DNA of 64,000 bases, taken from Limnochordia bacterium. Lineage in GTDB: Bacteria > Bacillota > Limnochordia > Darwinibacteriales > Darwinibacteriaceae. Location of the stretch: assembly GCA_050952265.1 (NCBI GenBank), contig JBMNKP010000004.1, positions 101,885-165,884 of the forward strand, read 5' to 3'. How positions within the stretch are numbered: the first letter of the stretch is position 1; every line of letters starts with the position of its first letter. The position numbers and the translations under genes are program-made. Positions 1,276-55,282 of this stretch are shown here, piece by piece. A model generated the notes under the pieces. The model searched no databases and was not told the origin of the DNA. It saw only the letters and a program-made list of their open reading frames with translations.

Positions 1276-3633
1276 GTGCGCACTGTGCCCAGCTGGAAGT
1301 TCGGCAAGATACGTGACCGCGTTCTGGCTCTCTTTGTGATCATCGTTCTAGGTCTCACGGCAACTGTCATGCTTATCTCAGGTGTGCTCACCCGCTCCCT
1401 AGTAACCGATCTGGTGGCGGAAAATGCACAAGCTCTGGCACATCACCAGAGCGAGATCCTCTCTCTGTGGCAGAGAGAGCGCATGACTTACCTGCGCCAG
1501 CTGGCCAATTCTGAGCTGCTGCAGACCATGGATTGGGAGCAGATCGAACCGTTTCTGCAGCAGCAGATGGCGGAAGCTCCCCCCTATTACTTGATCTTGT
1601 TTGTGGCCGCACCTGACGGCAGTTACAACACAACCCTCGAACGCAGCGCTGGCTTTGTCAGCGACCGAGAATACTTCGGCCGGGTCATGGCCGGCGAAAC
1701 TCTGATCACCGGCCCTCTTCTTTCCCGGTCTACTAATCAGCGCGTCATCATCGCGGCCACTCCTATCTGGAACGCGGATCGCACGACTGTCCAGGGCGTC
1801 CTCGGACTCTCCATGGATCTGGAAGAGCTGATGCGCGTTTCCCGGGAACTCCTCTTGTCCGACCAGCGTTCCCATTTCTACTTGATGGATGAAGATGGCT
1901 ACTTCATCATCCACCCCGACAGCGACATGATCATGAACGCTCGCGTACAAGATTTCGTGCCCGAATGGGACCAACTGCCCCGGGAGAGCGGATCCATATC
2001 TGGCGAGGAGAACGGCGAGGGTTATCGGGCATTCTACCAGAAGCTGCCCGATCCCAGCAACTGGACGGTAGCAGTGAAAGTACCAGTCTCCTACTTCACC
2101 GGACCCGTGAACAGGTTGATCCTGCTGTTACTGGTGGCAGCTATCGTCGGTTTTGTGCTTGTGTTCTGGCTCGGCTCCTGGTTCGCTTCCACCATAACCC
2201 GGCCCATCGTGGAACTCAATAATGTCTTCCGGCGCGGTGCCGCAGGCGATCTCACCGTGCGCGCGGAAGTTACGACGAAGGACGAAATAGGCGAAACCGG
2301 TCAGGCCTTTAACCGGATGATGGAGACCATAGGTACCATGACCTTCTACGATCCCCTGACTGGGCTGCCCAACCGTCAGCACTTCATCACCAGCTTGACT
2401 AATGCCCTCGAGAGCGCAAGCACGGTCATCCTTGCCCTGGTCTCGATCCGGGATCTTCCCGAGATCAAGACATTCGTCGACCGGCCAATTCTTGACGCTC
2501 TGCTCGTCCATCTAGCTGGGAGACTTCAGTCAATCAGTACCGAGCAACTGGTTACGGGCCGGCTTTCCGAAGGAGAATTCGGCCTGATCATCCCCTCCAA
2601 CACGAACTCGGTCCTGCAGGTTATCGACAGGCTGGATCAGCTCGTGGCCAAGCCCCTTTCCTTTGACGAAAAGAGGCTCACCGTGCGGCTCTGTGGAGGG
2701 ATAAGCATCAGTGTGGATCGAAATCTGAGTGCCGATCTGCTCTATCAGCAGGCCCAGGCAGCCCTCTATGAAGCTGAGCACAGCGGCGATGAACCGCTGA
2801 AACTCTACAACCCCAGTGTCCACCATGCGCTGGTGGAACGGATGCGTTTTCAGACGGAGATCCGGACTGGACTTGAGCAGGGGCAGTTCACCGTCTACTA
2901 CCAACCTGTTGTCGATCTGCAGACGGGTAGGATCGCCGGCAAGGAGGCCCTGATCCGCTGGAACCATCCTACACGGGGCCTGCTCAATCCCAGCCAATTT
3001 TTGCCTGCTGTGGAGCAGGGGGGCTTGGTTGAACAGATCGGGGAGTTCATGCTTGACCAGGTATGCGCTCAGCACGAACAGTGGGTGAAAGCCGGTTTTG
3101 ACCCTGGATGGGTGTCGGTGAACGTTTCGGCTCACCACTTCCGCTCGCCCCATTTTCCCGCCCAGCTGCAGTCAATCCTCAAGCGCTACGAGCTTCCGAA
3201 GGGGCTGCTGCGCATCGAAATCACTGAGGAGGCCATGCTCAAACCGACTCCCGAAGTCCTTGAAAACTTCCAGAGCCTGCGAGAAATGGGCATATACATC
3301 GCCATCGATGATTTTGGGACAGCCTACTCCTCCCTGCATTACCTCGCTCGCTACCCCATGCAGGCTCTGAAAATCGACAAGGAGTTCATCGATCGTGTCG
3401 ATAAGAGCTCCCGCATGGCGGGGCTCGTGCGTTCCATCATCGGCATGGGCATCAACCTATCCATGGAGGTTGTGGCGGAAGGCGTTGAGCGCCAGAACCA
3501 GCTGGAGCTGCTTCAGCACATGGGCTGCCGAGAAGCCCAGGGTTACCTGTTCAGCATGCCCGTGCCCTGGCAGGATTATCTGGAGGTGCAGCGCGGTCTG
3601 GCCGGGCGGTTGGCCAGTCTCCTTCCGGTCTAA
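1276..3633 (+). CDS. Membrane c-di-GMP phosphodiesterase: Cache-type sensor + HAMP + degenerate GGDEF + EAL
   Basis: Two TM segments flank an extracellular domain; HAMP (ITRPIVEL..GDLT..DEIGE); YDPLTGLPNR; GGDEF replaced by SEGEF; intact EAL motifs (EAL, NVS, EITE, DDFGTAYSS, KID, EGVE, QGY). Confidence 0.9.
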   Translation: MRTVPSWKFGKIRDRVLALFVIIVLGLTATVMLISGVLTRSLVTDLVAENAQALAHHQSEILSLWQRERMTYLRQLANSELLQTMDWEQIEPFLQQQMAEAPPYYLILFVAAPDGSYNTTLERSAGFVSDREYFGRVMAGETLITGPLLSRSTNQRVIIAATPIWNADRTTVQGVLGLSMDLEELMRVSRELLLSDQRSHFYLMDEDGYFIIHPDSDMIMNARVQDFVPEWDQLPRESGSISGEENGEGYRAFYQKLPDPSNWTVAVKVPVSYFTGPVNRLILLLLVAAIVGFVLVFWLGSWFASTITRPIVELNNVFRRGAAGDLTVRAEVTTKDEIGETGQAFNRMMETIGTMTFYDPLTGLPNRQHFITSLTNALESASTVILALVSIRDLPEIKTFVDRPILDALLVHLAGRLQSISTEQLVTGRLSEGEFGLIIPSNTNSVLQVIDRLDQLVAKPLSFDEKRLTVRLCGGISISVDRNLSADLLYQQAQAALYEAEHSGDEPLKLYNPSVHHALVERMRFQTEIRTGLEQGQFTVYYQPVVDLQTGRIAGKEALIRWNHPTRGLLNPSQFLPAVEQGGLVEQIGEFMLDQVCAQHEQWVKAGFDPGWVSVNVSAHHFRSPHFPAQLQSILKRYELPKGLLRIEITEEAMLKPTPEVLENFQSLREMGIYIAIDDFGTAYSSLHYLARYPMQALKIDKEFIDRVDKSSRMAGLVRSIIGMGINLSMEVVAEGVERQNQLELLQHMGCREAQGYLFSMPVPWQDYLEVQRGLAGRLASLLPV

Positions 3634-22482: not shown

Positions 22483-23763
22483 CTACTTGCTGAGGTTCAA
22501 CTCAAAGAATTCCTTCTCGAGCAGCGGGACGTATTTCTCCTGTGCTTCTGCAGCGGACATACCCGCAACGTTGACGCTGTCCCACATCTCGGTCCAGATG
22601 TCGCCAACGGTGGCCAAGGCGCCGCCCCAGATGTTCAGCCTGGAGGTCTCCATCCCCTTGAGGTACAGGGCGTTGGAAACATTTCCGTGGCTCATCTTGG
22701 CGTAGACTTCATTGGCAACCTTCTTGTTGGCCGGCATACCGATCTGGGCTGTGAACATGGCCATCTCATCGTTGGCAAAAGACGCTTCTTTCAGGAACTC
22801 CCAAGCGGCTTCTTTGTTCTTGGCGTCTTTGTACATGGCATAGCCAGTCGCGTAGGTGATGTTGGTGTTCTTTCCATCGGGGCTGTCCTTGGGAGGAAGT
22901 ACAGCATCCCACTCGAACCAATCGTCGATCTCCTGTGCCAGAGAAGCGATTTCAAAACCGCCCATCGGGTAAATGGCAGCCCTCTCGGTAATGAACAGCT
23001 GCTCTGAAGGCATGGTTTGAGCCGCAGACTGGCTGGGAATGGCCTGCGCTTCCACGATCAGGTATCTGAACAGATCCAGACCAGCCCTGACCTCTTCACT
23101 GTCCATGTAGATGTCGGAGAAGTCATCCGCATATGGCACACCGCCTTGGCAGATGATCGCGAAGTTGGGCAGTACCCAGTGGCGTACCATGGCATAGGTG
23201 CGGTTGACGCCTGAACCAGTTACGAACTTAGGTGCCATTTCGGCGAAGTCCTGCCAGGTCCAATCGTTGGTGGGGTACTCCACACCGAACTCGTCAAACA
23301 TGTTCTTGTTGTAGGCAAAGACGAACACGTTTGCAAGCAGCGGAAGTGCTTCCAGCTTGCCATCGGGGCGGTAGTAGTCATCGAGCATGCCCTCGGTGAT
23401 CACTTCGTTCAGATCGATTCCGTCTCTTTCCACATAGGGCCTCAGGTCTTCATAGTACTCGGTCAACAGGCCGTAGTAGTCAGGAGACATCTGGATGACA
23501 TCAGGCGCGTTTCCTGCTGCAAACGCAGCTGCCTGCCTCTGATCCCACACCTGGTCAGCTGTGGGAATAACCGAATGGATGACTTCCAGGTTGGGATGCT
23601 TCTTGGCAAAGGCTTCAACGGCCTTCTCCCGCATCTCCGCTTCATGCCCAGCTCCCCACGACCAAATCGTCAGCGTTCCCGTGAGCTCTTTGGCAAATAC
23701 CAGGTTAGGCAGCAAACCAACAACCAAAAGACTTACGAGTAACAGCAGCCCAATCCTCTTCAA
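22483..23763 (-). CDS. Sugar ABC transporter substrate-binding protein
   Basis: Signal peptide; TLTIWSW, AGNAPDV, AYNKNMFDEFG..P..DWTW and KNKEAAWEFLK. Confidence 0.9.
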   Translation of the reverse strand: MKRIGLLLLVSLLVVGLLPNLVFAKELTGTLTIWSWGAGHEAEMREKAVEAFAKKHPNLEVIHSVIPTADQVWDQRQAAAFAAGNAPDVIQMSPDYYGLLTEYYEDLRPYVERDGIDLNEVITEGMLDDYYRPDGKLEALPLLANVFVFAYNKNMFDEFGVEYPTNDWTWQDFAEMAPKFVTGSGVNRTYAMVRHWVLPNFAIICQGGVPYADDFSDIYMDSEEVRAGLDLFRYLIVEAQAIPSQSAAQTMPSEQLFITERAAIYPMGGFEIASLAQEIDDWFEWDAVLPPKDSPDGKNTNITYATGYAMYKDAKNKEAAWEFLKEASFANDEMAMFTAQIGMPANKKVANEVYAKMSHGNVSNALYLKGMETSRLNIWGGALATVGDIWTEMWDSVNVAGMSAAEAQEKYVPLLEKEFFELNLSK

Positions 23764-23820
23764 CGGTCACACTCCCTCTGCTTTATTGTTGCGTGTGCCA
23801 GATATCAAACCTCCTGCAGG

Positions 23821-23847
23821 CTGTATACAGGTCTGATGTCTGACACC
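23821..23847. promoter_or_regulatory. Possible GntR-type operator palindromes upstream of the sugar ABC operon
   Basis: CTGTATACAG (perfect palindrome) next to GATGTCTGACACC (one mismatch); no regulator gene nearby. Confidence 0.3.
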
Positions 23848-24197
23848 TTTGATCAGTATTGGACGCTTACGCGAAATTTCCTCCCATCTTGTTGATTTTT
23901 TGTGTACCGCAGTCAACTTTCTGAACGCTTCGCAGCTGAGAGAAAAGGTGTTTCAAGGTGCGCAAAAAAAGAAGCTTCCCGCGTATTTCGCAGAAAGCCC
24001 CTGAAATCCACTGTGCTTCAGTTGACGGTCTGCCTAGTTCACAAAATCAACGAAGATGAAAGGCTGGATGATCATCTCAGGTCTTGGCACAAACCTGATG
24101 GCCCTGAACCGCACTTCCCGCCACGAGACTGAACGCCACTAAAAGCAGAACTGAAGACCGTCTATGCTTCTCGCATATCGATCCTCTCTCTGCCAGG

Positions 24198-24386
24198 CTA
24201 CTTCGAATTCCGTGCCGCATCGCACTCCAGACACAGACCATCGGGTGTGCGCTCTTTGTAGGCCAGATCCTGCCCGCAAACCGGGCAGAATGGGCCGAGG
24301 AAATGCGGCCGAGATCCACCACCTGTTACCTTCTCCAAATCCTCGTCCATAAGTTTCTTCACTTCGGGTTTGCCCTTCATTTCCAT
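24198..24386 (-). CDS. 62-aa peptide with a double-glycine-type leader and a CxxC-x14-CxxC core
   Basis: RBS GGGAGGA; leader ...KLMDEDLEKVTGG; core contains CPVC and CLEC. Confidence 0.7.
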   Translation of the reverse strand: MEMKGKPEVKKLMDEDLEKVTGGGSRPHFLGPFCPVCGQDLAYKERTPDGLCLECDAARNSK

Positions 24387-24566
24387 GACAAATCCTCCCT
24401 CTGAATTGGTCCATCCCTCACGGGATCTTCAAAGCACGTTCAACAGCGGCAGCCAGCAAAAAGGCAGGTTACCAAAAGCTTACGATGTGGAGGACATCAG
24501 CACTGTCGTTTAGAATACACCGTCAGGCACCTGGTTGCACAATCGGTTGGATGGGAGTGCAGAGCA

Positions 24567-25703
24567 ATGGTGAACGGGCCCAGAGACACTCAGTTTGTCA
24601 AAAGAGCCATCCTTTTAGCCGGATTGGTGCTGGTCATCGTGTATTTCAACCAGGTCCTGAAGGCTGCCAAATCTGTCTACGACATTGTGCTTCCGCTTGT
24701 CTTGGGCTTCATCATCGCCTATGTAGTGAACATACTCATGCGCTTCCTGGAGCGGCACTACTTCCCCAAGGCGGAAAAGCCGTGGATCGCCAGAACAAGG
24801 CGGCCCGTCTGTCTCCTCCTCTCTTATGTCCTGATCCTCCTGATCCTTGCGGCGGTAATCACCCTAGTGCTGCCGAAGGTGGTGGATACCATCAAGGCCC
24901 TTTCTGCAGTACTCCCTGGATATTGGGAGCGGATCAGCCAATGGGTCGACGATCACAAAGACCAGTGGTCCTTCGTCAGCGAATGGATGGACAAAGACGC
25001 CTTGAGCTGGGACAGCATTACAGATAACATCAAGTCCAATGCCCCGCAGAGCCTCCGCGGCATCTTGACCTCATCGCTCACCGTGATTTCCGGGCTGACA
25101 TCGGGACTCTTTGACCTGGTCGTGGGCTTAGCTTTCTCAGCTTATCTCCTAGCTAGCAAAGAGAGGCTGCTCGCCCAGGCAGAGAAACTTCAAAAGGCCT
25201 TTTTGCCGCCGAGCACAGCTGCCAGGTTCAACACAATCCTTGCCGCTGCCAACGAAAGCTTCGCGAGTTTTATCACGGGACAGTGTACCGAAGCAGTGAT
25301 CTTAGGGGCCCTCTGCATAGCGGGCATGCTCATCTTTGGCTTCCCCTATGCTACCTCCATCGGCATCTTCGTCGGCGTTACCTCTCTGATTCCCATCCTT
25401 GGCGCCTATTTGGGAGCAGCCGTGGGAGTGCTCCTGATCTTCCAGGCAGATCCCGCCAAAGCACTGTTGTTTGTTGTCTTCATCATCGTGCTGCAGCAGC
25501 TGGAGGGAAACCTGATCTACCCCAGGGTGATGGGCACATCCCTCGGCCTGCCAGGGCTGTGGGTATTTGCTGCCGTGGTCATCGGCGGCGGTTTGGGGGG
25601 TATCGTGGGAATGCTGTTTGGGGTGCCAACCGCGGCAACGATTTACAAGCTAGTTCGCGCAGCAGCCGATGAGAGAACAAAGGCGCAGGCTCAGCGCACC
25701 TGA
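24567..25703 (+). CDS. AI-2E family (PerM-like) membrane transporter
   Basis: F..FITGQCTEA.ILG.L, SLIPILGA.LG and QQLEGNLIYPRVMG.SLGLP motifs. Confidence 0.9.
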   Translation: MVNGPRDTQFVKRAILLAGLVLVIVYFNQVLKAAKSVYDIVLPLVLGFIIAYVVNILMRFLERHYFPKAEKPWIARTRRPVCLLLSYVLILLILAAVITLVLPKVVDTIKALSAVLPGYWERISQWVDDHKDQWSFVSEWMDKDALSWDSITDNIKSNAPQSLRGILTSSLTVISGLTSGLFDLVVGLAFSAYLLASKERLLAQAEKLQKAFLPPSTAARFNTILAAANESFASFITGQCTEAVILGALCIAGMLIFGFPYATSIGIFVGVTSLIPILGAYLGAAVGVLLIFQADPAKALLFVVFIIVLQQLEGNLIYPRVMGTSLGLPGLWVFAAVVIGGGLGGIVGMLFGVPTAATIYKLVRAAADERTKAQAQRT

Positions 25704-26002
25704 GCTCGTCCCCTCTACCAAGAGCCAGACCACAAGGTGCCGATGGGAATGCAGAGCGCTGGGATGTTTGTGCAAGGGCATGGCGGTGCAGCATGCCGTA
25801 GACTGCCACGGCAAACGCCTTGAAGGGCGAGGCCATGGGGAATATGGTATAGGGTACGAATTGATACGGCACGTTTTCCACCCACCGGCTGGGCATCTAC
25901 AGATCAGTTCGACCCCGCAGAACCGTCTCCTTTCCATTCTTGGGTCTGGCCCCTAGCTGGGCGAAATTTAACGTGCCTGGAAGGACAAGGTCCTTGGACG
26001 GC

Positions 26003-32534: not shown

Positions 32535-33872
32535 TTAAGCGTCTTTTTCTCCGCGGGCTTTGGTCACCCGCTTAAATTCATACAACCGCCTATCGGCCCT
32601 GTTCAAGGCGTCCAGGTAGCTGGCATCGCCGGGTTGGAAACGGGAAGCCCCCAGCGATATGCTGGTCCGGACCCTTTCTCCTCCAAACTGGAACTCGAGG
32701 GCGGAGACGGATCGAACGATCCGCTTAGCCAGCTTCTCTTCGTTGGCCTTCGGAGCCACAATCACGAACTCATCGCCTGCCCAGCGGATCACCTCGCCAG
32801 AACTCCCAACCACTCTCTCCACTTCGGCGGACAGCGCCTGCAGGACCTGGTCTCCTGCCGAGTGCCCGAAGGTATCGTTGATCTTTTTCAGGCTGTCAAC
32901 GTCGCACATGAAGATCACAGGGCTTTCTTCCCCCGCTTGGAACTCCTCAAATGACGAACCCAGCAGCGCAACTCCGCTCCGACGGCTCTTGGCGCCGGTG
33001 AGGAGATCGATGCTTACCTCCTGAACAAGCTGAGCTGTGTGGCTGCGGAAATAGAGGTATTCGGCGAGCAGCACCAGGCCCAACGCGGTTACGACCACCA
33101 GCACCAAGATCAGCACCAGCCGCAGGGAAAGCAGAACGGCCAGCTTGCCGCCGGCCTGGGCCGTTTCTTCCGCATAGCGCTCCAGTTCTTCTCTGTGAAC
33201 CCCCATGGCGATCACCAGGTTCAGGTCCTCTAACCTTTGGGTGTAGGCAAGCTCGTCACCGCCTTCGGGACCTGGTGGTGCCTGGCTGATGGAAACCCAG
33301 GTTCCGCTGCCCAGTTCCAGCTCTGCAACCATCTGCCGTATTCGATCCTTTATGGCGGCGTCCACCGCGCTCCTGGGTACACCCCACAGAGCAGCTAACT
33401 CACCCTGCGCGAGTCCATCATAGTACAGCAGGTCCTCGAAGGGCTCGTCCACCTGCAGCTGTCCCCTCTGGTAGATGATCTCACCCGTGGCGCGGTTCCA
33501 GAGCGCCGCAGTAAGGGAGGGTTCAGCCTCCATGAGAGACGCTAAAAAGCGCGGGAAATCCTCCTCTGAGAGATCCATGCCCAGCTCCAGCAGCCTGTGC
33601 CGGTCCTGGACAAGGGTCTGCCAGGCCAGCTCTTCAGACTTTTTCAGAGCGTCGATTTCCCGTACCAGATTCTTTACGGTCGTCTGCAGAAAGTCCAGTT
33701 TGATCTCGGCTACGGCACGTTCCGTCTCAGCCAGATAGATGGCGGCCACATGCTGAAAAGACCACCAGAACGCGAGACCACTGGCAGCACAGATCAGCAG
33801 CACTAAAATGGCCATGACAATATTATGGTTGTGCCTGTCTGAAGGCACCACCCTGCGCTGCTTGGCCTTCAT
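32535..33872 (-). CDS. Membrane diguanylate cyclase (AGDEF variant)
   Basis: Two TM segments; DLLTG, DVDSLKKINDTFGH.AGD.VL and RWAGDEF. Confidence 0.85.
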   Translation of the reverse strand: MKAKQRRVVPSDRHNHNIVMAILVLLICAASGLAFWWSFQHVAAIYLAETERAVAEIKLDFLQTTVKNLVREIDALKKSEELAWQTLVQDRHRLLELGMDLSEEDFPRFLASLMEAEPSLTAALWNRATGEIIYQRGQLQVDEPFEDLLYYDGLAQGELAALWGVPRSAVDAAIKDRIRQMVAELELGSGTWVSISQAPPGPEGGDELAYTQRLEDLNLVIAMGVHREELERYAEETAQAGGKLAVLLSLRLVLILVLVVVTALGLVLLAEYLYFRSHTAQLVQEVSIDLLTGAKSRRSGVALLGSSFEEFQAGEESPVIFMCDVDSLKKINDTFGHSAGDQVLQALSAEVERVVGSSGEVIRWAGDEFVIVAPKANEEKLAKRIVRSVSALEFQFGGERVRTSISLGASRFQPGDASYLDALNRADRRLYEFKRVTKARGEKDA

Positions 33873-33951
33873 TCCGCAACCCTTCTTACCCCCGGAATAT
33901 CTGCTGCACCTATTCACCAACACCAAGCGGTTTCCCTGCCGGAACCACTGG

Positions 33952-37053: not shown

Positions 37054-39426
37054 CTATGGGCGGGCGTACCGTTCGTCAAGCAAGCGGACAGCAGCTGCCG
37101 CACTCACCGGCCTGGAGAACAAGAAGCCTTGGAGGAAATCGCAGTTGTGCTTGATGAGGTAGTCCCTCTGAACCTCCTGCTCCACGCCCTCCGCGACCAC
37201 GCTGTGCCCAAGGCGGTGGGCCATGGAGATAATATCTCCTGCAATGACCTGGTTTCCTTCCGGCGTCGTGACGCGGTCGATGAAACTCTTGTGGATCTTC
37301 AGGCAGTTCACATTCAGCTCCTGTTCCCGTGCAAGCGACGAATAACCCGTGCCGAAATCGTCGATGGCGATAGTTATGCCAACCTGCTTCAGAACGGCCA
37401 GCTTCTCGTTGATAGATGCGTAGTTCTGGGCAAAAACAGACTCGGTGATCTCCAGGCAGAGCTGGGAGGGCTCAATGCCCGCTTCACTTATGATCTCCAG
37501 AACCTCGTCGACAAAATCATCCTGAGCAAGCTGGATGGCGGAGACGTTGATGGAGATGGTATGACCCTTGTGCCCCCTGGCTTCCAGGACGCGCAGGAAG
37601 GCGCAGGCCTTGCGGGCAATCTGCTTGCCGATGGGTACGATCAGCTGGCTCTCCTCAGCGAGGGGTATGAACTCGCCAGGAGAAACGATGCCCAAAGCTC
37701 CCCCGTCCAGCCGCGCCAGCGCCTCAAAGGCGTAGATCTCGTCGGTGTCTGCATCGATGATCGGCTGGTATTCCAAAAAGAGGGCATCTTCCCGGCCTCC
37801 GTATGCCACATCGAAGAGAATCTCCTCGATCTCGCTCAGCCTGTTCAGCTCCGCGGCCATGTCCTCGTCGAAGAAACGGTAGGCAAAGGGACTCGTGCGA
37901 TCAGCACGCTCGGCGCTGATCCCCGCGTGGTGGATCAAGTCCTCTGGCTCAACCGCCTCGTCCTCGATCTGGCGGATGCCGATGCCGCAGCCGTAGGTAC
38001 TGACAATATCCACGCTCTTCAGGGTCTCGACCAGTTCAGCGCAGAACTGAACCAGTTTGCCTCGGCTGAGGGGTTCCTGGATGTAGAAGGCGAAGCGGCC
38101 ATAGGCAGCGTTGTACAAGCTGCGGGTTGGGGTACAGTGGGCGGCCAGGCGCTGGGCTACGTTTCTCAACAGAAACTCGCAGAAGCTGAAGCCGTAGATC
38201 GCGTTGATCGTGTTGATCCTGCGCATGTTGAGGAGGACTACGGCACGGCTTGGGTAACGCCCGCTTTTGCCGTCCTCATCCATCACCGCCCGCAGAGCTC
38301 GGCGGTTAGGCAGCCCCGTGAGCATATCCAGCTCGCTCATCCTCTTGAGCTGGAGTTCACTCTGTTTGCGCTCAGTAATATCTATGATGATCCCCTCGAG
38401 GGCTTCCACCTCACCGCGGTCATTGAAGACACCCTGACCCATCTCCAGAACCCATTTGCGCTCGCCGCGAGCAGTGATGATTTCATACTCATACTCAAAA
38501 GATCTCTTCTCGGGCAGCACTTCCTGCCATTTCTCCCAGAGAGCCTCGCGGTATTCGGGCGCAATTAGATCGTTGAAAGACAGGTCGCGGTTGTACAGCA
38601 GGCTTTCTGCGGGATAGCCCGTCAGAGGCTCGCAGCCTTCCGAAACAAACTGCATGGTCCAGGCCCGGTCCAGGAGATAGCGGTAGGCCATGCCGGGAAG
38701 GTTCTTGAGCAGGACTCCCTTACTGCGTTCGCTCTCGGAAAGACGTTCCTCCACTTTCTTGCGGTCGGTGATGTCCTTGATGAGCAGGATGGTCTTTCTT
38801 CCTGCATTCCCAGGGAGCTCGTAGGGTGCAGCCGTCATCTCCACCCAGACCAGAGATCCGTCGGGCTTGATCAGGCGCTGCTCCATGCTGTAATTCGAGA
38901 TAAGGCCCTTCTCCAGCAGCCGCTGCTGAACACTGCCTTGAACCGCATCCTCTGGATGGAGCACCTTTTCCCAGCCAAGTTTGGTCAGATCAACCCGGGA
39001 ACGGCCTGTGATGCGGAGAAAGGCCTGGTTGACAATGGGAAAGAAGCTGTCGTAAGCATCGGCAGGTTCTGCGGACAATCCTACTGCGATACCCAGCGAA
39101 TGCTGGCTGAAAATGGCATTGAGGAGGGCGGCGTGGTGGGGGTGAGCGCTGGTGAGCGCCTGCTGCAGCCCCTCTTCGTCATTGATCAGCGCCACCGGGA
39201 TGCTGAGCGGACCGACGGCGGCCTCCAGCTGCTTGGCCAGATCATAGCCATCGAGGTCCCCCTGCTGGCGGCAGATAACGATCAAGTAGATATCGCTGTT
39301 CTTTTGAATCTCGGCGGCAGCTTCTGCCACGGTACTGGTCGCGATAGTCTCGAATCCACCCGGGGCACCTCGCTGCTCTTCTAGGCCTGGGAGGCAGTCT
39401 CCCACGATCAGAATCTTCCCCGGCAT
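37054..39426 (-). CDS. Pseudo-REC + PAS + PAS + degenerate GGDEF + EAL phosphodiesterase
   Basis: PAS/PAC motifs (HPED..; LPGMAYR..W..QFVSEG); DMLTGLPNR; GGDEF lost; EAL, EITE, DDFGTGYSS, EGVE and QGF present. Confidence 0.88.
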   Translation of the reverse strand: MPGKILIVGDCLPGLEEQRGAPGGFETIATSTVAEAAAEIQKNSDIYLIVICRQQGDLDGYDLAKQLEAAVGPLSIPVALINDEEGLQQALTSAHPHHAALLNAIFSQHSLGIAVGLSAEPADAYDSFFPIVNQAFLRITGRSRVDLTKLGWEKVLHPEDAVQGSVQQRLLEKGLISNYSMEQRLIKPDGSLVWVEMTAAPYELPGNAGRKTILLIKDITDRKKVEERLSESERSKGVLLKNLPGMAYRYLLDRAWTMQFVSEGCEPLTGYPAESLLYNRDLSFNDLIAPEYREALWEKWQEVLPEKRSFEYEYEIITARGERKWVLEMGQGVFNDRGEVEALEGIIIDITERKQSELQLKRMSELDMLTGLPNRRALRAVMDEDGKSGRYPSRAVVLLNMRRINTINAIYGFSFCEFLLRNVAQRLAAHCTPTRSLYNAAYGRFAFYIQEPLSRGKLVQFCAELVETLKSVDIVSTYGCGIGIRQIEDEAVEPEDLIHHAGISAERADRTSPFAYRFFDEDMAAELNRLSEIEEILFDVAYGGREDALFLEYQPIIDADTDEIYAFEALARLDGGALGIVSPGEFIPLAEESQLIVPIGKQIARKACAFLRVLEARGHKGHTISINVSAIQLAQDDFVDEVLEIISEAGIEPSQLCLEITESVFAQNYASINEKLAVLKQVGITIAIDDFGTGYSSLAREQELNVNCLKIHKSFIDRVTTPEGNQVIAGDIISMAHRLGHSVVAEGVEQEVQRDYLIKHNCDFLQGFLFSRPVSAAAAVRLLDERYARP

Positions 39427-39524
39427 GCTAACGCCCCTCTCCAACGGTAAAAACAATGTTGCCACTCAAGTTAGTTCCACATCAACCAGTGTCCTCCTGC
39501 CCCAGCTCAGATTTCGGCGTGAAT

Positions 39525-46884: not shown

Positions 46885-46913
46885 TTTACAGGGATCCTGG
46901 CATGTGGTATTTT
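46885..46913 (+). promoter_or_regulatory. Sigma-A promoter upstream of the riboswitch
   Basis: TTTACA-N17-TATTTT with an extended TG. Confidence 0.5.
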
Positions 46914-46929
46914 AGTGTTGTGAAACATA

Positions 46930-46998
46930 ACTCATATAAGCCTGCAAATTTGGTGCAGGAGTCTCTACGTGGCAACCTATATTGCCTACGCTATGAGT
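46930..46998 (+). ncRNA. Purine (guanine-sensing) riboswitch aptamer
   Basis: P1 ACTCATA/TATGAGT; P2 CCTGCA-AATTTGG-TGCAGG; J2/3 AGTCTCTAC; P3 with a CC-starting loop; C at the discriminator position; upstream of a purine permease. Confidence 0.88.
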
Positions 46999-47160
46999 GA
47001 CTTATAAGCGCTTGATCAATGAGGGCTTCAGTGAAGCCGCTCATGACGTTTCCTTGCAGCTTGTCGATCACTCGATGAGTTTTTTTGTTTTTCCGGGCCC
47101 ATGGGGGAAAACTAACCCTCTGGAGATAAACCAAATTAGAGGCGGAGGAATGAGAAGCCA

Positions 47161-48522
47161 ATGGAGAGTTTCTTCAAGCTGAAGGAGAACGGCACTAATG
47201 TACGCACTGAAGTCCTGGCTGGATTGACCACGTTTTTTGCCATGGCGTACATCATCATGGTCAACCCCGACATCCTGTCGATGACGGGTATGCCCTGGGG
47301 AGCTGTCTTTCTAGCCACCATCGCTGCCTCGATCATCGGCACGCTGGTCATGGGATTGTTCGCCAATGTGCCCTATGCGCAGGCACCCGGTATGGGCCTC
47401 AATGCCTTTTTCACCTTCACGGTTGTGTTCAGTCTCGGCTTTACCTGGCAGGAAGCACTGGCCATGGTGTTTGTCTGCGGCCTGATCAACATCCTGATCA
47501 CGGTAACAAATGTCCGTAAACTGATCATCAAGTGCATCCCTGAGAGCCTGCAGAACGCCATCGGCGGCGGCATCGGCATCTTCATCGCCTACATCGGCAT
47601 CAAAAACGCCGGGCTGCTCAGTTTTGCAGCCGGCGTGCCGGAGCTGGTACCGTTTAACGATCCGGCTGTGCTGCTCACCCTCTTCGGCCTGGCCATCACC
47701 GTCATCATGCTGGTTCTGAATGTAAGGGGAGCCATCCTGATCGGTATCGTTATAACCACCCTTGTTGGTATTCCCTTTAACGTTACCGAGCTGGGAAGCA
47801 CCATCAGCCTGGGGCAGGCCTTTTCCGAGCTGCGCACCACCTTCTTTGCGGCCTTTGGGAATCCTGGACTGATTTCACTGTTCAGCGATGCGAGCAAGCT
47901 GCCCATGGTGCTCATGACCATCTTTGCCTTCAGCCTTACTGACACATTCGACACCATCGGGACGTTCATCGGTACTGGACGCCGGGCAGGCATCTTTTCT
48001 GCCGAGGATATGAAAGCGCTGGAGACCAGTTCTGGCTTCAAGTCCAAGATGGACAGAGCCCTCTTCGCAGACGCCACGGCGACTTCCATCGGTGCTATCT
48101 TCGGCACTTCCAACACGACGACCTACGTGGAGAGCGCTGCGGGTATCGGCGTTGGCGGAAGAACCGGTTTGACCAGTGTGGTCGTGGCCGTCCTCTTCGC
48201 CCTGAGCACCTTCTTCGTCCCGGCGATCAGCGCCATTCCTTCGGCCGCTACCTCCCCGGCCCTGATCATCGTGGGTATCATGATGCTGGCTTCCTTCAAG
48301 GAAGTAAACTGGTCCGATTTTGTCGAAGCCGTGCCTGCCTTCTTCGCCGGCATCTTCATGGCCCTGTGCTACAGCATCTCCTACGGGATCGCCGCTGGTT
48401 TCATCTTCTACACCCTTGTGAAGATCGCAAAAGGCCAGACCAAGGAAATCCATCCGATTCTGGCCATATCGACGATTCTCTTCATCATCAACTTCATCGT
48501 CCTGGCTGTGCTCCAAGGCTAG
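47161..48522 (+). CDS. NCS2/AzgA-family guanine-hypoxanthine permease (PbuG/PbuO-like)
   Basis: FFKLKENGT.VRTE.LAG.TTF, APGMGLNAFF, FDTIGT and YVES.AGI..GGRTGL. Confidence 0.93.
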   Translation: MESFFKLKENGTNVRTEVLAGLTTFFAMAYIIMVNPDILSMTGMPWGAVFLATIAASIIGTLVMGLFANVPYAQAPGMGLNAFFTFTVVFSLGFTWQEALAMVFVCGLINILITVTNVRKLIIKCIPESLQNAIGGGIGIFIAYIGIKNAGLLSFAAGVPELVPFNDPAVLLTLFGLAITVIMLVLNVRGAILIGIVITTLVGIPFNVTELGSTISLGQAFSELRTTFFAAFGNPGLISLFSDASKLPMVLMTIFAFSLTDTFDTIGTFIGTGRRAGIFSAEDMKALETSSGFKSKMDRALFADATATSIGAIFGTSNTTTYVESAAGIGVGGRTGLTSVVVAVLFALSTFFVPAISAIPSAATSPALIIVGIMMLASFKEVNWSDFVEAVPAFFAGIFMALCYSISYGIAAGFIFYTLVKIAKGQTKEIHPILAISTILFIINFIVLAVLQG

Positions 48523-48552: not shown

Positions 48553-48584
48553 AGACCACCGTCAGTTCTGGCGGTGGTCTTTTC
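48553..48584. terminator. Terminator between convergent genes
   Basis: agaccaccgtcag-tt-ctggcggtggtct followed by tttc. Confidence 0.75.
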
Positions 48585-50809
48585 TACGAGGCCAGTTGGG
48601 CCAAGGCATCTTCTTCTACCATCGGCCTGCTGTGGTAATACCCCTGCATGATATCGCAGTCGCTCTCCGCTAGGTAGCGCAGCTGCCGTTCGTGTTCCAC
48701 TCCCTCCGCTACCACCTCAAGCCCCATCTTGTGGCACATGGAGATCAGGTCTTTGATGAACAAGCGGTTTCGGTCCTTTTCCATGATGTTATCGATAAAC
48801 CGCTTGTCGATTTTGATGCAGTCGATAGGCAGCTCCTCAAGGCGGGAGAGCGCCGAGTAGCCGGTGCCAAAGTCATCGAGGGCAATGCTCACGCCCAAGG
48901 CACGCAGCGGCTGGAGTCTGGCATCCGCACCCGCGAAGTCCTCGATGATCACCGATTCGGTGATCTCAAGCTGGATCTGCTCCGGTGCTGTGCCGGTTTC
49001 TGCCAGGATCTCCGCCACCCGCTTTGGGAAGTCCTCCTGGACAAGCTGGAGCACGGAGATGTTCACCGCCACATGCTGGTCGCTGTGGCCATTTTGTTTG
49101 AGCCGCTGGATGAACCTGCAGGCCCGCTCTAAGACGAAGTAACCGAGGGGGGTGATCAGTCCCTGACGTTCAGCTATGGCGATGAACTCCACAGGCGAAA
49201 CCAATCCCAGTGAAGGCGAGTTCATGCGGGCTAAGGCCTCAAAACCGACAACCTTCCCGGTGGCTATCTCAACCTTTGGCTGGTAATGCAGGTAGACAGT
49301 GCCCAAATCGGGATTGCCCACAAAGCGGCGCAGTTCCTGGGCGATGATCTCCTCACGCCGAAGTTTGGCTGCCATCTCCACGTCGAAGAAAGCGTAACTG
49401 GGACCGGTTTTGCGGTTCTCCAGGTGCTGGACTGCCACGGCCGCCTGGGTGATCACCTCTGCAGGATCGCCGTGGACGCTCGCGAGTTCCACAATCCCTG
49501 TACCCACTTCTAGGTGGTGACCGATGGGTTCGAGACCCTCCTCTGCCTGCCCCCGGATCTTCTCAGCCAGCTCGACAAGTTCGTCTCTGCTCTGGTAACC
49601 CTGCACTAGAAAGACGAAACGATTGCCGGAGAAGCGGAACAACCGTCTTCCATTCTCAGCCAGAGCAGCGAGCTTCTCACCCACTTGATGCATGAGGCGA
49701 TCGCCGGCGTCAAACCCGTAGATCGAGTTGATGTCGTTTAGGTTCCGGAAGTGCACGAGCAGGACTGCGCTGCCCGAACGGTCTTTCCGCTCCACTAGAT
49801 CAGCCAGGACCTCTTCCAGCAAAACCTTGTTGGGCAGGCCGGTTAAGGTATCGTGGTAGGCTAAGGTGACGAGTTCCTGGTTATGCCTGAGGTTTGAGTA
49901 CATGACATAGACCAGGATCAAGCACACGAAGCTGGTTACGCCAAAGACGAGTAGGGTGGTAGTGCGCAGGGCAGCCAATGTGGAACTCGCTGACTTCCCC
50001 ACCACTAGGACGCCCACCAGTTCACCGTCAAGGTGAACCGGAACGAAGATATCGTACATCTCGTCACCATTAGTCTGACGGACCATGGAGTAGACCTCGC
50101 CAGACAAAACGGTCTCTCGCATCGCAGGATCATCGACGAGCAGACCAACATGATCGTGCGCGCTCGCGATGACCGTGAAGTCCGGACCCACAAAGCAGGC
50201 ATGGTCCACCAGCTGAAAACCGGCGATCTCACCGAGTGCCTTCTCCAGTTCAAACGCGGACAGGAAACTGCGGACCGAATCAGCACTGATGCCGAGCTGC
50301 ACGAAGCGCCCATCGTCCAGGCGCACATAGGCGTATTTGAAGTAGCGGTCAGACTCGCTGTCCTTCCGGATGTCTTCAACCAGGGACTCAGCGCCGCTGA
50401 TCATGAAATCGTACACGGGGTGCCCGGGCAGCGCCTCCCAGCCCAGGTACTCAGGGCGGGTGGAGACCTCGATGATCCCTTCGGGATTGTAGATGTAAAT
50501 CTCGTCCACGGACATGGACTCGGCAAGAGCCTGCAGGGCTTCGTCGGTCATCTCGTTGGAAAACAAAGCAGCGGTGCTGGTAGCAGCCAGGAGCCTGGCC
50601 TCCAAAAGGTTGTTGATCGCGCGGTAAGCTTCCCTGCTCTTCATGAGACTATGCGAGAAAACGCTGGCATAGCTGCGGCTTTCTTCCTCCAGTCTCCGAA
50701 GCAGCAAGGTGCGTATGTAGCCGACCAGAAAGTAGTTTAGGGCAGAAAAGACGAGGGCTATGAGAACGAGGGCTATGACGTACGGTTTGGTCTTGATGGT
50801 CCGCTTCAT
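48584..50809 (-). CDS. Membrane sensor + degenerate GGDEF + EAL phosphodiesterase
   Basis: Two TM segments; YHDTLTGLPN; GGDEF replaced by SGNRF; intact EAL/EITE/DDFGTGYS/KID/EGVE/QGY; ATG 50809. Confidence 0.88.
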   Translation of the reverse strand: MKRTIKTKPYVIALVLIALVFSALNYFLVGYIRTLLLRRLEEESRSYASVFSHSLMKSREAYRAINNLLEARLLAATSTAALFSNEMTDEALQALAESMSVDEIYIYNPEGIIEVSTRPEYLGWEALPGHPVYDFMISGAESLVEDIRKDSESDRYFKYAYVRLDDGRFVQLGISADSVRSFLSAFELEKALGEIAGFQLVDHACFVGPDFTVIASAHDHVGLLVDDPAMRETVLSGEVYSMVRQTNGDEMYDIFVPVHLDGELVGVLVVGKSASSTLAALRTTTLLVFGVTSFVCLILVYVMYSNLRHNQELVTLAYHDTLTGLPNKVLLEEVLADLVERKDRSGSAVLLVHFRNLNDINSIYGFDAGDRLMHQVGEKLAALAENGRRLFRFSGNRFVFLVQGYQSRDELVELAEKIRGQAEEGLEPIGHHLEVGTGIVELASVHGDPAEVITQAAVAVQHLENRKTGPSYAFFDVEMAAKLRREEIIAQELRRFVGNPDLGTVYLHYQPKVEIATGKVVGFEALARMNSPSLGLVSPVEFIAIAERQGLITPLGYFVLERACRFIQRLKQNGHSDQHVAVNISVLQLVQEDFPKRVAEILAETGTAPEQIQLEITESVIIEDFAGADARLQPLRALGVSIALDDFGTGYSALSRLEELPIDCIKIDKRFIDNIMEKDRNRLFIKDLISMCHKMGLEVVAEGVEHERQLRYLAESDCDIMQGYYHSRPMVEEDALAQLAS

Positions 50810-51054
50810 GGTACCGTACCTCCACAGAAACAGGGCATGCGGCGACCAATGGTGGGATCTGACCCTGTGCAAAACTCTTCGCTATCCACGGGCAAAACCC
50901 CTTCTGCACTTACCACATGACTTACGGTCGCTTAACGAAAAAGATCGGTTCCCTTGGCTGTTGGAACGCATAGACGATGTGGAACACAGATCGCTTTACC
51001 CACAGTGAAAGGTCTTTGGCGGGTTGTCCAACAGCACTACTCCCCAGCACCATT

Positions 51055-54680: not shown

Positions 54681-55282
54681 GCCAGAGCCTCCGATTGTGC
54701 TGAGCGTCCACTTCTCCATCCCTGTGCTGGCACAGTTGCTTCGACCAGGGGCTGTTGTCAGCTCACAGTACGTTTCAGGCTCGCTTCTGCTCACTTCGAT
54801 TCTTCTTCGCCCCTTCACGTCACCGAAGGGCTTTTGACCCCAGAGCGCCTCTTGTATGCACAGACGTCCCCCGAGTTTTCGCCTCCCACCTGTTACCAGG
54901 GTTCACAGGCTTGGGGTTCATCTACTACGGGCCCATCTGCCACCCCCAATGCTTCGCTTGGCCTCGTGTTTCCACTTGCGCCTCACTTACCCGCCCCTTC
55001 ATATGGGACATTGGTGGCTTCCCCGGTAAGTCTACCTGCCCTGCCTTGAAGCCCTCCGTCCTAACTTGCAGGGTCATCCAGCTATCGGGCTTTCCCATCT
55101 CTTGCAGGGTTACCCACTCTTCAAGCCAACCTCGGTTCACCTGCGTTATGTTCCAAGGCACCCCTCGGCTTCCTCCAAAACCCGCTGTTCGCAGTGGCAC
55201 CCTTGCCTGCTGGTAACCTTCCCGCTGGTTGGGGGATAGGGTTTCTTTCAACCCATCGGCTCGTTAGACATGCCGCGCACAC
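54240..55282 (-). mobile_element. Group IIC intron remnant 2 (5' ribozyme domains plus the first part of the IEP; 3' end missing)
   Basis: Starts GTGTGCGCGGCATG right after the lipoprotein gene terminator; IIC domain-I motifs (GCAAGGGTG..GGAGGAAGCCGAGG..GGAACA; CTTACCGGGGAAG). Confidence 0.85.

Follow-up and report, generated by a model that had tools for sequence, protein, structure and literature searches.

A conserved four-cysteine peptide with a double-glycine leader, a probable export precursor orphaned within a 64-kb stretch of a Limnochordia genome

The leaders and exporters of double-glycine-leader peptides are well understood, and to our knowledge the cargo of C39-peptidase ABC transporters (PCATs) has so far been described almost wholly as membrane-active bacteriocins, pheromones and heavily modified RiPPs. 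Leader recognition by PCATs follows a published pattern, L(-12)-x3-E(-8)-L(-7)...GG (PMC6363468). A three-gene set, TIGR03794, TIGR03796 and TIGR03797, makes up the export cassette of the NHLP/Nif11 type (Haft, Basu and Mitchell 2010, PMC2887384). The peptide described here resembles PCAT/AMS substrates (ComC/ComA, LahA/LahT, CtA/PCAT1) in its short leader with hydrophobic residues at -12, -7 and -4, an acidic residue at -8 and a terminal Gly-Gly, and in having a C39-peptidase ABC transporter encoded beside one of its homologues, with no tailoring enzymes. It differs from these systems in that the homologue's exporter is of the three-gene NHLP type, and in that no exporter is linked to it in the window, the 64,000-nucleotide stretch of DNA that we analyzed (57% GC).

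The NHLP/Nif11 families are similarly close in some respects. The same three-gene cassette stands beside the homologue in two contigs, the last 13 or so leader residues resemble the ends of NHLP/Nif11 leaders, and long-leader precursors of a Nif11/DUF2624-like type in a sister genome carry similar four-cysteine cores. In contrast to those families, the leader is only 23 residues long and lacks a domain of the nitrile-hydratase or Nif11 kind, cyclodehydratase and LanM genes are absent nearby, and within the family the core shows strict conservation instead of hypervariability. Because its leader is short, the peptide is not a member of the NHLP/Nif11 families. It is a new family of the known double-glycine-leader kind, and not a new kind of system.

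The precursor gene has the following features:

24198..24386, minus strand: precursor peptide ORF, ATG start, 62 codons plus stop, 62 aa
24394..24399, minus strand: Shine-Dalgarno sequence GGGAGG, 7 nt 5' of the ATG, kept in homologous loci
24318..24386, minus strand: leader, residues 1-23, MEMKGKPEVKKLMDEDLEKVTGG, from the conserved motif and an AF2 helix
Codons 24323-24318, minus strand: predicted cleavage site after G22-G23, from the motif and the register of homologue L033
24201..24317, minus strand: core, residues 24-62, 39 aa, GSRPHFLGPFCPVCGQDLAYKERTPDGLCLECDAARNSK; Cys codons 24287-24285, 24278-24276, 24233-24231 and 24224-24222

The ORF and translation quoted in the original prediction agree exactly with ours, as do the elements it named: a strong ribosome-binding site (GGGAGG, 7 nt ahead of the ATG), a leader with L12 at -12, E15 and D16 at -9 and -8, L17 at -7, V20 at -4 and G22-G23 at -2 and -1 (G23 being -1), and a 39-residue core of the type CxxC-x14-CxxC (C34-x2-C37-x14-C52-x2-C55). 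When the window was simulated 200 times with a first-order Markov model and read in six frames, a loose form of the leader motif alone occurred 0.26 times per 64 kb. The leader followed by a CxxC...CxxC tail was seen 0 times in the 200 simulations versus the one real case, which is the single ORF with this combination in the 64-kb window. No paralogous leaders were found in the window.

Conservation within the leader is concentrated at the positions expected for PCAT recognition. G22 and G23 are invariant in all aligned homologues, and the double glycine, whose absence from homologues had been named as evidence against the original prediction, is therefore shared by the family. Positions -12, -7 and -4 remain hydrophobic across homologues. 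Alignments A1 and A4 retain L-12, D-8, L-7, V-4 and GG, with residues 2-11 free to vary, and the DLEKV stretch shows few, conservative changes (EMEKV in L033). The recognition-pattern residues are L12, D16, L17 and V20 in the window and I, E, M and V in L033. The window leader satisfies the published PCAT pattern, including a hydrophobic residue at -4, and the requirement for GG at -2/-1. L033 reads ...EKVKGG/ASRPHF (GGA at the junction), which fixes the cleavage register after G22-G23 in window numbering. The AF2 model, computed with the family alignment, is helical over residues 12-20 and disordered at the GGG.

A search with bacteriocin and Nif11-type models, which the original prediction had proposed as a check, did not lend support: the peptide stayed below every curated cut-off. 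The best matches among the NCBIfam leader and bacteriocin models were 12.6 and 11.9 bits (cut-offs 37 and 40), and TIGR01847 did not match. Nor did the models for the long nitrile hydratase alpha-like or Nif11-like leaders (TIGR03793 and TIGR03798); the leader of the peptide has only 23 residues.

The core has a computed mass of 4253 Da, with pI 6.7 and GRAVY -0.5. All four cysteines are invariant in homologues, and their arrangement, CPVC-x14-CLEC, has zinc-ribbon spacing. The RTPDGLC stretch is also invariant, and SRPxxLGPFC is kept with few conservative changes. AF2 models the core with a pLDDT of about 80 and a C-terminal helix that opens at the second CxxC, a predicted treble-clef or zinc-ribbon-like arrangement. 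CPxCG...CxxC is a signature typical of cytoplasmic zinc ribbons. Like C4 zinc ribbons such as the zinc form of ribosomal protein S14, LIM half-domains and the ClpX zinc-binding domain, the core has two CxxC knuckles, the first of them CPxCG, at a spacing of about 14 residues, and its second cysteine pair is predicted at the start of a helix. However, all matches to known zinc ribbons are sub-significant. Only zinc-ribbon models were returned by Pfam, below threshold (DZR_2 14.9 bits, DZR 14.3 bits; cut-off 27), and Foldseek with the peptide model gave zinc-binding domains only, all at E>1. Known zinc ribbons are moreover cytoplasmic, whereas this core lies behind a secretion-type leader. The core is hydrophilic and near neutral, unlike the cationic amphiphilic class II bacteriocins, from which the peptide also differs in escaping TIGR01847 and in its CPxCG-x14-CxxC spacing. 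These properties would make a folded signal, or a metal- or protein-binding role, likelier than pore formation.

A search of 5.8 billion proteins yielded homologues in 8 clusters (73-98% identity, each about 62 aa), the sole source name of which was 'hypothetical protein'. Genome and metagenome scans added further homologues down to 66% identity. The family is small, with about 10 sequence clusters or lineages from uncultured Bacillota of anaerobic digesters, and the GG and the four cysteines are kept throughout. The relatives derive from anaerobic-digester MAGs that carry the label Bacillota or Firmicutes, and for one linked protein the label is Limnochordia. When 1.84 billion representative proteins were searched with a profile, a single 50%-identity cluster and two marginal matches came back, and judged by these searches the family is narrow and part of no broad family. 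Pairwise dN/dS ranged from 0.14 to 0.25 across the ORF as a whole and from 0.08 to 0.25 within the core. About 20 metagenome runs of several studies, from digesters, sludge, compost and biofilm, contain the 2.1-kb stretch 23700-25800 at full word share. A 12-residue match in a Bdellovibrionales contig (L034 9119-9154, GGRRPHFLGPFC) was rejected; it has neither the leader nor further similarity and is probably due to chance.

In the relatives, the peptide gene belongs to a recurrent module. A gene for a 359-aa lipoprotein of no known family is followed by an AI-2E transporter gene, and divergent from these the peptide gene is followed by a gene for a secreted papain-like protein of 311-314 aa, which begins 19-27 nt past the peptide stop codon. 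The most divergent homologue (66% identity) lies in L033, and the same cluster is present on an independent 27-kb contig, L048. In both, the order is peptide, papain-like gene and then the export genes, which begin some 1.25 kb past the peptide's stop and match TIGR03794 (HlyD-like; 196.6 bits, cut-off 156.2), TIGR03796 (969.6, cut-off 853.3) and TIGR03797 (758.6, cut-off 709.4). The TIGR03796 protein, a peptidase/permease/ATPase, has an N-terminal C39 motif, QMETLECG...H...DP. When all loci were scanned for the motif, no second ORF with a GG leader turned up in the L033 and L048 clusters, where the peptide homologue is the sole candidate substrate. No tailoring enzyme is encoded within about 7-10 kb on either side, the flanks holding only uptake transporters, and none in any other homologous locus with called genes. 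Exporter adjacency was seen in one of about seven lineages, the remaining lineages having unrelated genes downstream (contigs L045-L047 stop at the papain-like gene).

A further link to an exporter comes from the closest leader relative among the 1.84 billion representative proteins, P0129 (ELTDADLEKVAGGGAQPHMLGTF), which has no cysteine. Its 1-kb contig, L052, contains:

L052 3-443: end of a TIGR03797-type gene
L052 655-840 and 879-1001: tandem GG-leader precursors, P0129 and one beginning MNKDHDKKKAQIEPTELADADLDKVAGG

P0129 is encoded directly 3' of the gene end, which scores 263 bits to TIGR03797 versus about 139 for the next ABC model and is 57% identical to the TIGR03797-type protein of L033. 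The double-glycine-leader reading of the original prediction is supported by the PCAT pattern, by the 66%-identical homologue beside a C39-ABC exporter and by the position of P0129 directly after an exporter gene.

We consider it likely, on the strength of these comparisons, that the peptide is a PCAT-processed, unmodified precursor of an exported four-cysteine mini-protein that has become genomically orphaned in the window. The 23-residue leader would form an amphipathic helix ending in Gly-Gly and would be recognized by the C39 cysteine-peptidase domain of a PCAT, which would sever the leader after G22-G23 and carry the 39-residue core across the membrane. The core would then form a small knot of the zinc-ribbon or treble-clef type, its four cysteines holding a metal ion or forming two disulfides. 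The product is probably unmodified and either class-II-bacteriocin-like or signal-like. Two stretches of the peptide are TPDGLCLECDAAR and GSRPHFLGPFCPVCGQDLAYK; the latter is the semi-tryptic N-terminus that cleavage after GG is predicted to leave. The original prediction had offered a trans-processed RiPP, a signalling-peptide precursor or an exported zinc-ribbon mini-protein. The signalling peptide or exported mini-protein fits best, and the RiPP fares poorly, with no tailoring enzyme in the window or the exporter cluster.

The papain-like neighbour matches PF12385 (Peptidase_C70; 27.2 bits, cut-off 19) and PF13529 (Peptidase_C39_2; 25.3 bits, cut-off 24), has a Sec signal peptide and belongs to a family with more than 1600 matches. 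PF13529 domains occur in phage endolysins too. A structure model has a papain-like fold, with cathepsins, staphopain, LahT and AvrRpt2 as the top Foldseek matches (probability up to 0.99, E-values 1e-3 to 0.1); a sequence search of the PDB with this protein found nothing. The active site of the family reads QQTTEWSCGN...H...D. In every peptide-linked orthologue, the cysteine is replaced by Ser or Ala (TEWSS or TEWSA), with the His and Asp kept:

L001 7227-8165: Cys-less papain-like orthologue
L033 3452-4378: Cys-less papain-like orthologue
L016, L020, L031 and L040: equivalent orthologues

Their dN/dS is about 0.10-0.13. No peptide gene lies upstream of the relatives that keep the cysteine (TEWSCGN), among them those of Acetoanaerobium, Tissierella and Bacillus rubiinfantis. 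We had considered the neighbour as a leader protease and rejected it, because it is secreted by the Sec route, its nucleophile cysteine is gone and its cysteine-keeping relatives are unlinked to the peptide. Going by its residues, the neighbour is a pseudo-protease, secreted and conserved, or at best a serine variant; its gene is probably co-transcribed with the peptide gene and can be lost. An analogue may be the CLD of HlyB-type transporters, a catalytically dead C39-like domain. Both have a C39-type fold without the nucleophile, and the neighbour keeps its His and Asp under purifying selection. Unlike the transporter-borne CLD, the papain-like protein is free, Sec-secreted and of the PF13529/PF12385 type.

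The N-terminus of the peptide core, SRPHFLGPF (window 24317-24290, residues 24-33), is partly common to the Cys-free P0129 (AQPHMLGTF). Its PHFLGPF portion bears some likeness to PxFGxW, the cleavage motif of AvrRpt2 (C70). The best Pfam match of the neighbouring papain-like protein is Peptidase_C70, the same class as AvrRpt2. As a lead only, the conserved start of the core may be a recognition element.

The window itself retains only part of the ancestral arrangement. Around the peptide gene we found:

24034..24176, minus strand: 143-nt pseudogene remnant of the secreted papain-like (C39_2/C70) gene, by tblastn, blastn and direct reading
23963..24002, minus strand: intrinsic-terminator-like hairpin, 14 pairs, then T7; the peptide transcript likely ends here
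24485..24534, no strand: conserved block of about 50 nt in the divergent peptide/AI-2E intergenic region, from alignment A3
24567..25703, plus strand: AI-2E (PerM/YtvI-like) family membrane transporter, PF01594, divergent from the peptide gene

The remnant sits between the peptide stop codon and the terminator. It keeps the end of the signal peptide, VLLLVAFSLVAGSAVQG, and the last 11 or so codons (QPFIFVDFVN*), with the junction near 24066; it is frameshifted, has an early stop, and about 794 nt are deleted. In blastn, window 24186-24066 corresponds to L020 993-1122 and window 24066-24033 to L020 1917-1950. The lineage of L009-L014 and L042 preserves other fragments of the papain-like gene (residues 62-78 and 184-211). 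Since the deletion patterns differ, the gene was lost twice independently, with the peptide ORF left intact. The AI-2E gene adjoins the peptide gene in all lineages but one, at 75-80% identity across loci (tblastn), and its NCBIfam matches are below cut-off. The gene for the 359-aa lipoprotein was not found in the window by tblastn.

A Pfam search of window ORFs of at least 150 aa, a few of which had no match at all, confirmed the earlier statement that no C39/ABC exporter, radical-SAM, LanM or YcaO gene is present, and a tblastn query with a PCAT had no match anywhere in the 64 kb. The description of the peptide as an orphan thus holds for the window, in which its orphan status results from the decay of neighbouring genes. 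The ancestral locus would have been lipoprotein gene and AI-2E transporter gene, divergent from peptide and Cys-less papain-like gene, to which at least one lineage adds the HlyD-like, C39-ABC and ABC genes. In the window lineage the lipoprotein gene has gone, no exporter genes lie in the 64 kb, and the papain-like gene is a remnant. These losses leave the peptide gene orphaned, to be served, if at all, by an exporter encoded outside the window. The window copy is a clean example of the orphaning of a precursor gene, the scar of the lost neighbour being still legible.

In 22 RNA-labelled runs at least 86% of the sampled words of the peptide gene occur, and in 18 of these runs all of them. Contigs from 8 of the 8 metatranscriptomes examined span the ORF with zero variants. 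In five of the 8 runs a contig ends at 24001, 24064, 23978, 24016 or 24011, at most about 65 nt from the predicted terminator; X31 and X39 each have one long contig that passes through it, and X33 has a separate 600-nt contig, 23911-24511. These contigs are unstranded assemblies that possibly contain DNA, so transcription is well supported and its strand is what we infer. An ORF neither transcribed nor conserved had been named as counting against the original prediction; the dN/dS of 0.14-0.25 and the (unstranded) contigs of the eight metatranscriptomes point the other way. The conserved block at 24485-24534 has overlapping -10-like boxes on its two strands (plus, TAGAAT; minus, TATTCT) and may be a shared promoter or operator. 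A simple sigma-70 scan of the intergenic region found no promoter, and an Rfam scan found nothing near the peptide locus.

The main weakness of an export function is that exporter linkage comes from one lineage and one leader relative. Also counted against it are that no curated HMM was reached, that the core is neither cationic nor hydrophobic and carries the CPxCG...CxxC signature, and that the window has no exporter. The peptide could instead be a small cytoplasmic zinc-ribbon protein, uncleaved, consisting of a charged helix, a flexible GGG linker and a C4 knuckle, with the leader match and the exporter adjacency both coincidental. The weak Pfam matches are all to zinc ribbons (14.9 and 14.3 bits), Foldseek yields zinc-binding domains alone (E>1), an exporter is absent near most loci, and the residues after GG, SRPHFLGPF, are conserved as strongly as the remaining protein. 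Nevertheless, coincidence would have to account for a sole candidate substrate beside a three-gene exporter in L033 and L048, for a nearest leader relative, P0129, that is Cys-free and lies in another exporter cluster, for the conservation of -12, -8, -7, -4, -2 and -1 while residues 2-11 vary, and for a combination of leader and four-cysteine core that never arose in the 200 simulations. We therefore regard a cytoplasmic protein as quite unlikely. Less probable still, and in our view improbable, is a modified RiPP in which enzymes encoded elsewhere convert the cysteines into, for example, thioether links of the sacti-, ranthi- or lanthipeptide type before cleavage at GG. NHLP-type exporters are classically tied to modified peptides, and Nif11-type precursors encoded apart from their enzymes are known (PMC2887384); the core is, besides, rich in cysteine. 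Yet radical-SAM, LanM, YcaO and other tailoring genes are absent from the window, from the surroundings of the L033 and L048 clusters and from the other gene-called loci, and the CPxCG-x14-CxxC spacing, the confident AF2 fold and the strict conservation of the core fit a folded domain better.

A different question, compatible with export of the peptide in relatives, is whether the window copy is a functionless relic of a decayed locus, transcribed yet beyond processing and export. Its papain-like neighbour is down to the 143-nt remnant, the 359-aa lipoprotein gene is missing from the window and no exporter lies within 64 kb. However, the ORF, the Shine-Dalgarno sequence and the terminator are intact, no variant occurs in the contigs of the eight metatranscriptomes, and the surrounding 2.1-kb stretch is wholly present in about 20 metagenome runs. 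The lineage of L009-L014 and L042 lost the neighbour by different deletions and retained the peptide ORF. Against partner-bearing lineages the dN/dS of the core is 0.1-0.2; the loss is too recent for relaxed selection to be gauged, a single change separating the window from L015. On balance a relic is unlikely.

Other GG-leader proteins are encoded in the clade. In a sister genome three of them have one long leader in common, and two of these form a tandem pair:

L010 1253-1573 and 1684-2013: two tandem long-leader genes, 106 and 109 aa, also present in L009 and L011-L013

Each has a DUF2624/Nif11-like helical leader ending in LDAVTGG, followed by a CxxCG...CxxC core of 35-38 residues. The pair lies 5.5 kb from the peptide gene, its neighbours being a YmzB-like gene and the genes of a 7TM histidine kinase and a LuxR-type regulator, and its proteins score 13-15 bits to the NHLP/Nif11 leader models (cut-off 32.3). 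P0133 has the leader of the L010 pair and a wholly different, Cys-free core. Swapped cores behind conserved leaders are a hallmark of exported precursors. The common leader ending in VTGG, with unrelated cores behind it in the L010 pair and P0133, indicates that GG is a leader/core boundary in this clade. P0130, a marginal match unrelated to the peptide and with its context limited to short contigs, has a leader that passes TIGR01847 (16.2 bits, cut-off 15.7) and a zinc-ribbon-like core. Together, the peptide family, the L010 pair and P0130 place zinc-ribbon-like cores behind at least three different GG leaders. Our literature searches turned up no account of a GG-leader peptide whose core is of the zinc-ribbon or CxxC type.

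These proteins may tentatively be drawn together in a wider proposal, which we think unlikely. The zinc-ribbon-like four-cysteine GG-leader peptides (the peptide family, the two L010 paralogues and P0130) would make up a class of PCAT cargo of their own, so far undescribed, in anaerobic Bacillota, in which a metal would take over from disulfides in stabilizing the exported mini-protein in strictly anoxic, reducing habitats. The Cys-less papain-like partner would be an extracellular binder (receptor, chaperone or immunity factor) and not a protease. The peptide family itself pairs a strictly conserved hydrophilic 39-residue core, bearing a zinc-ribbon signature, with a conserved pseudo-protease, and would widen PCAT cargo to folded, possibly metal-bound mini-proteins of uncultured anaerobes that are abundant in digesters.

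Three further observations concern the window at large. A purine riboswitch (RF00167, 56 bits) lies at 46912-47013 on the plus strand, just 5' of a xanthine/uracil permease gene (47161-48522). A match to group II intron domains D1-D4 (RF02001, 43 bits) lies at 55030-55198 on the minus strand; the adjacent ORFs have no recognizable reverse transcriptase, and the intron may be ORF-less or degraded. Four cyclic-di-GMP proteins with GGDEF and/or EAL domains are encoded at 1276-3633, 32535-33926, 37054-39465 and 48584-50872.
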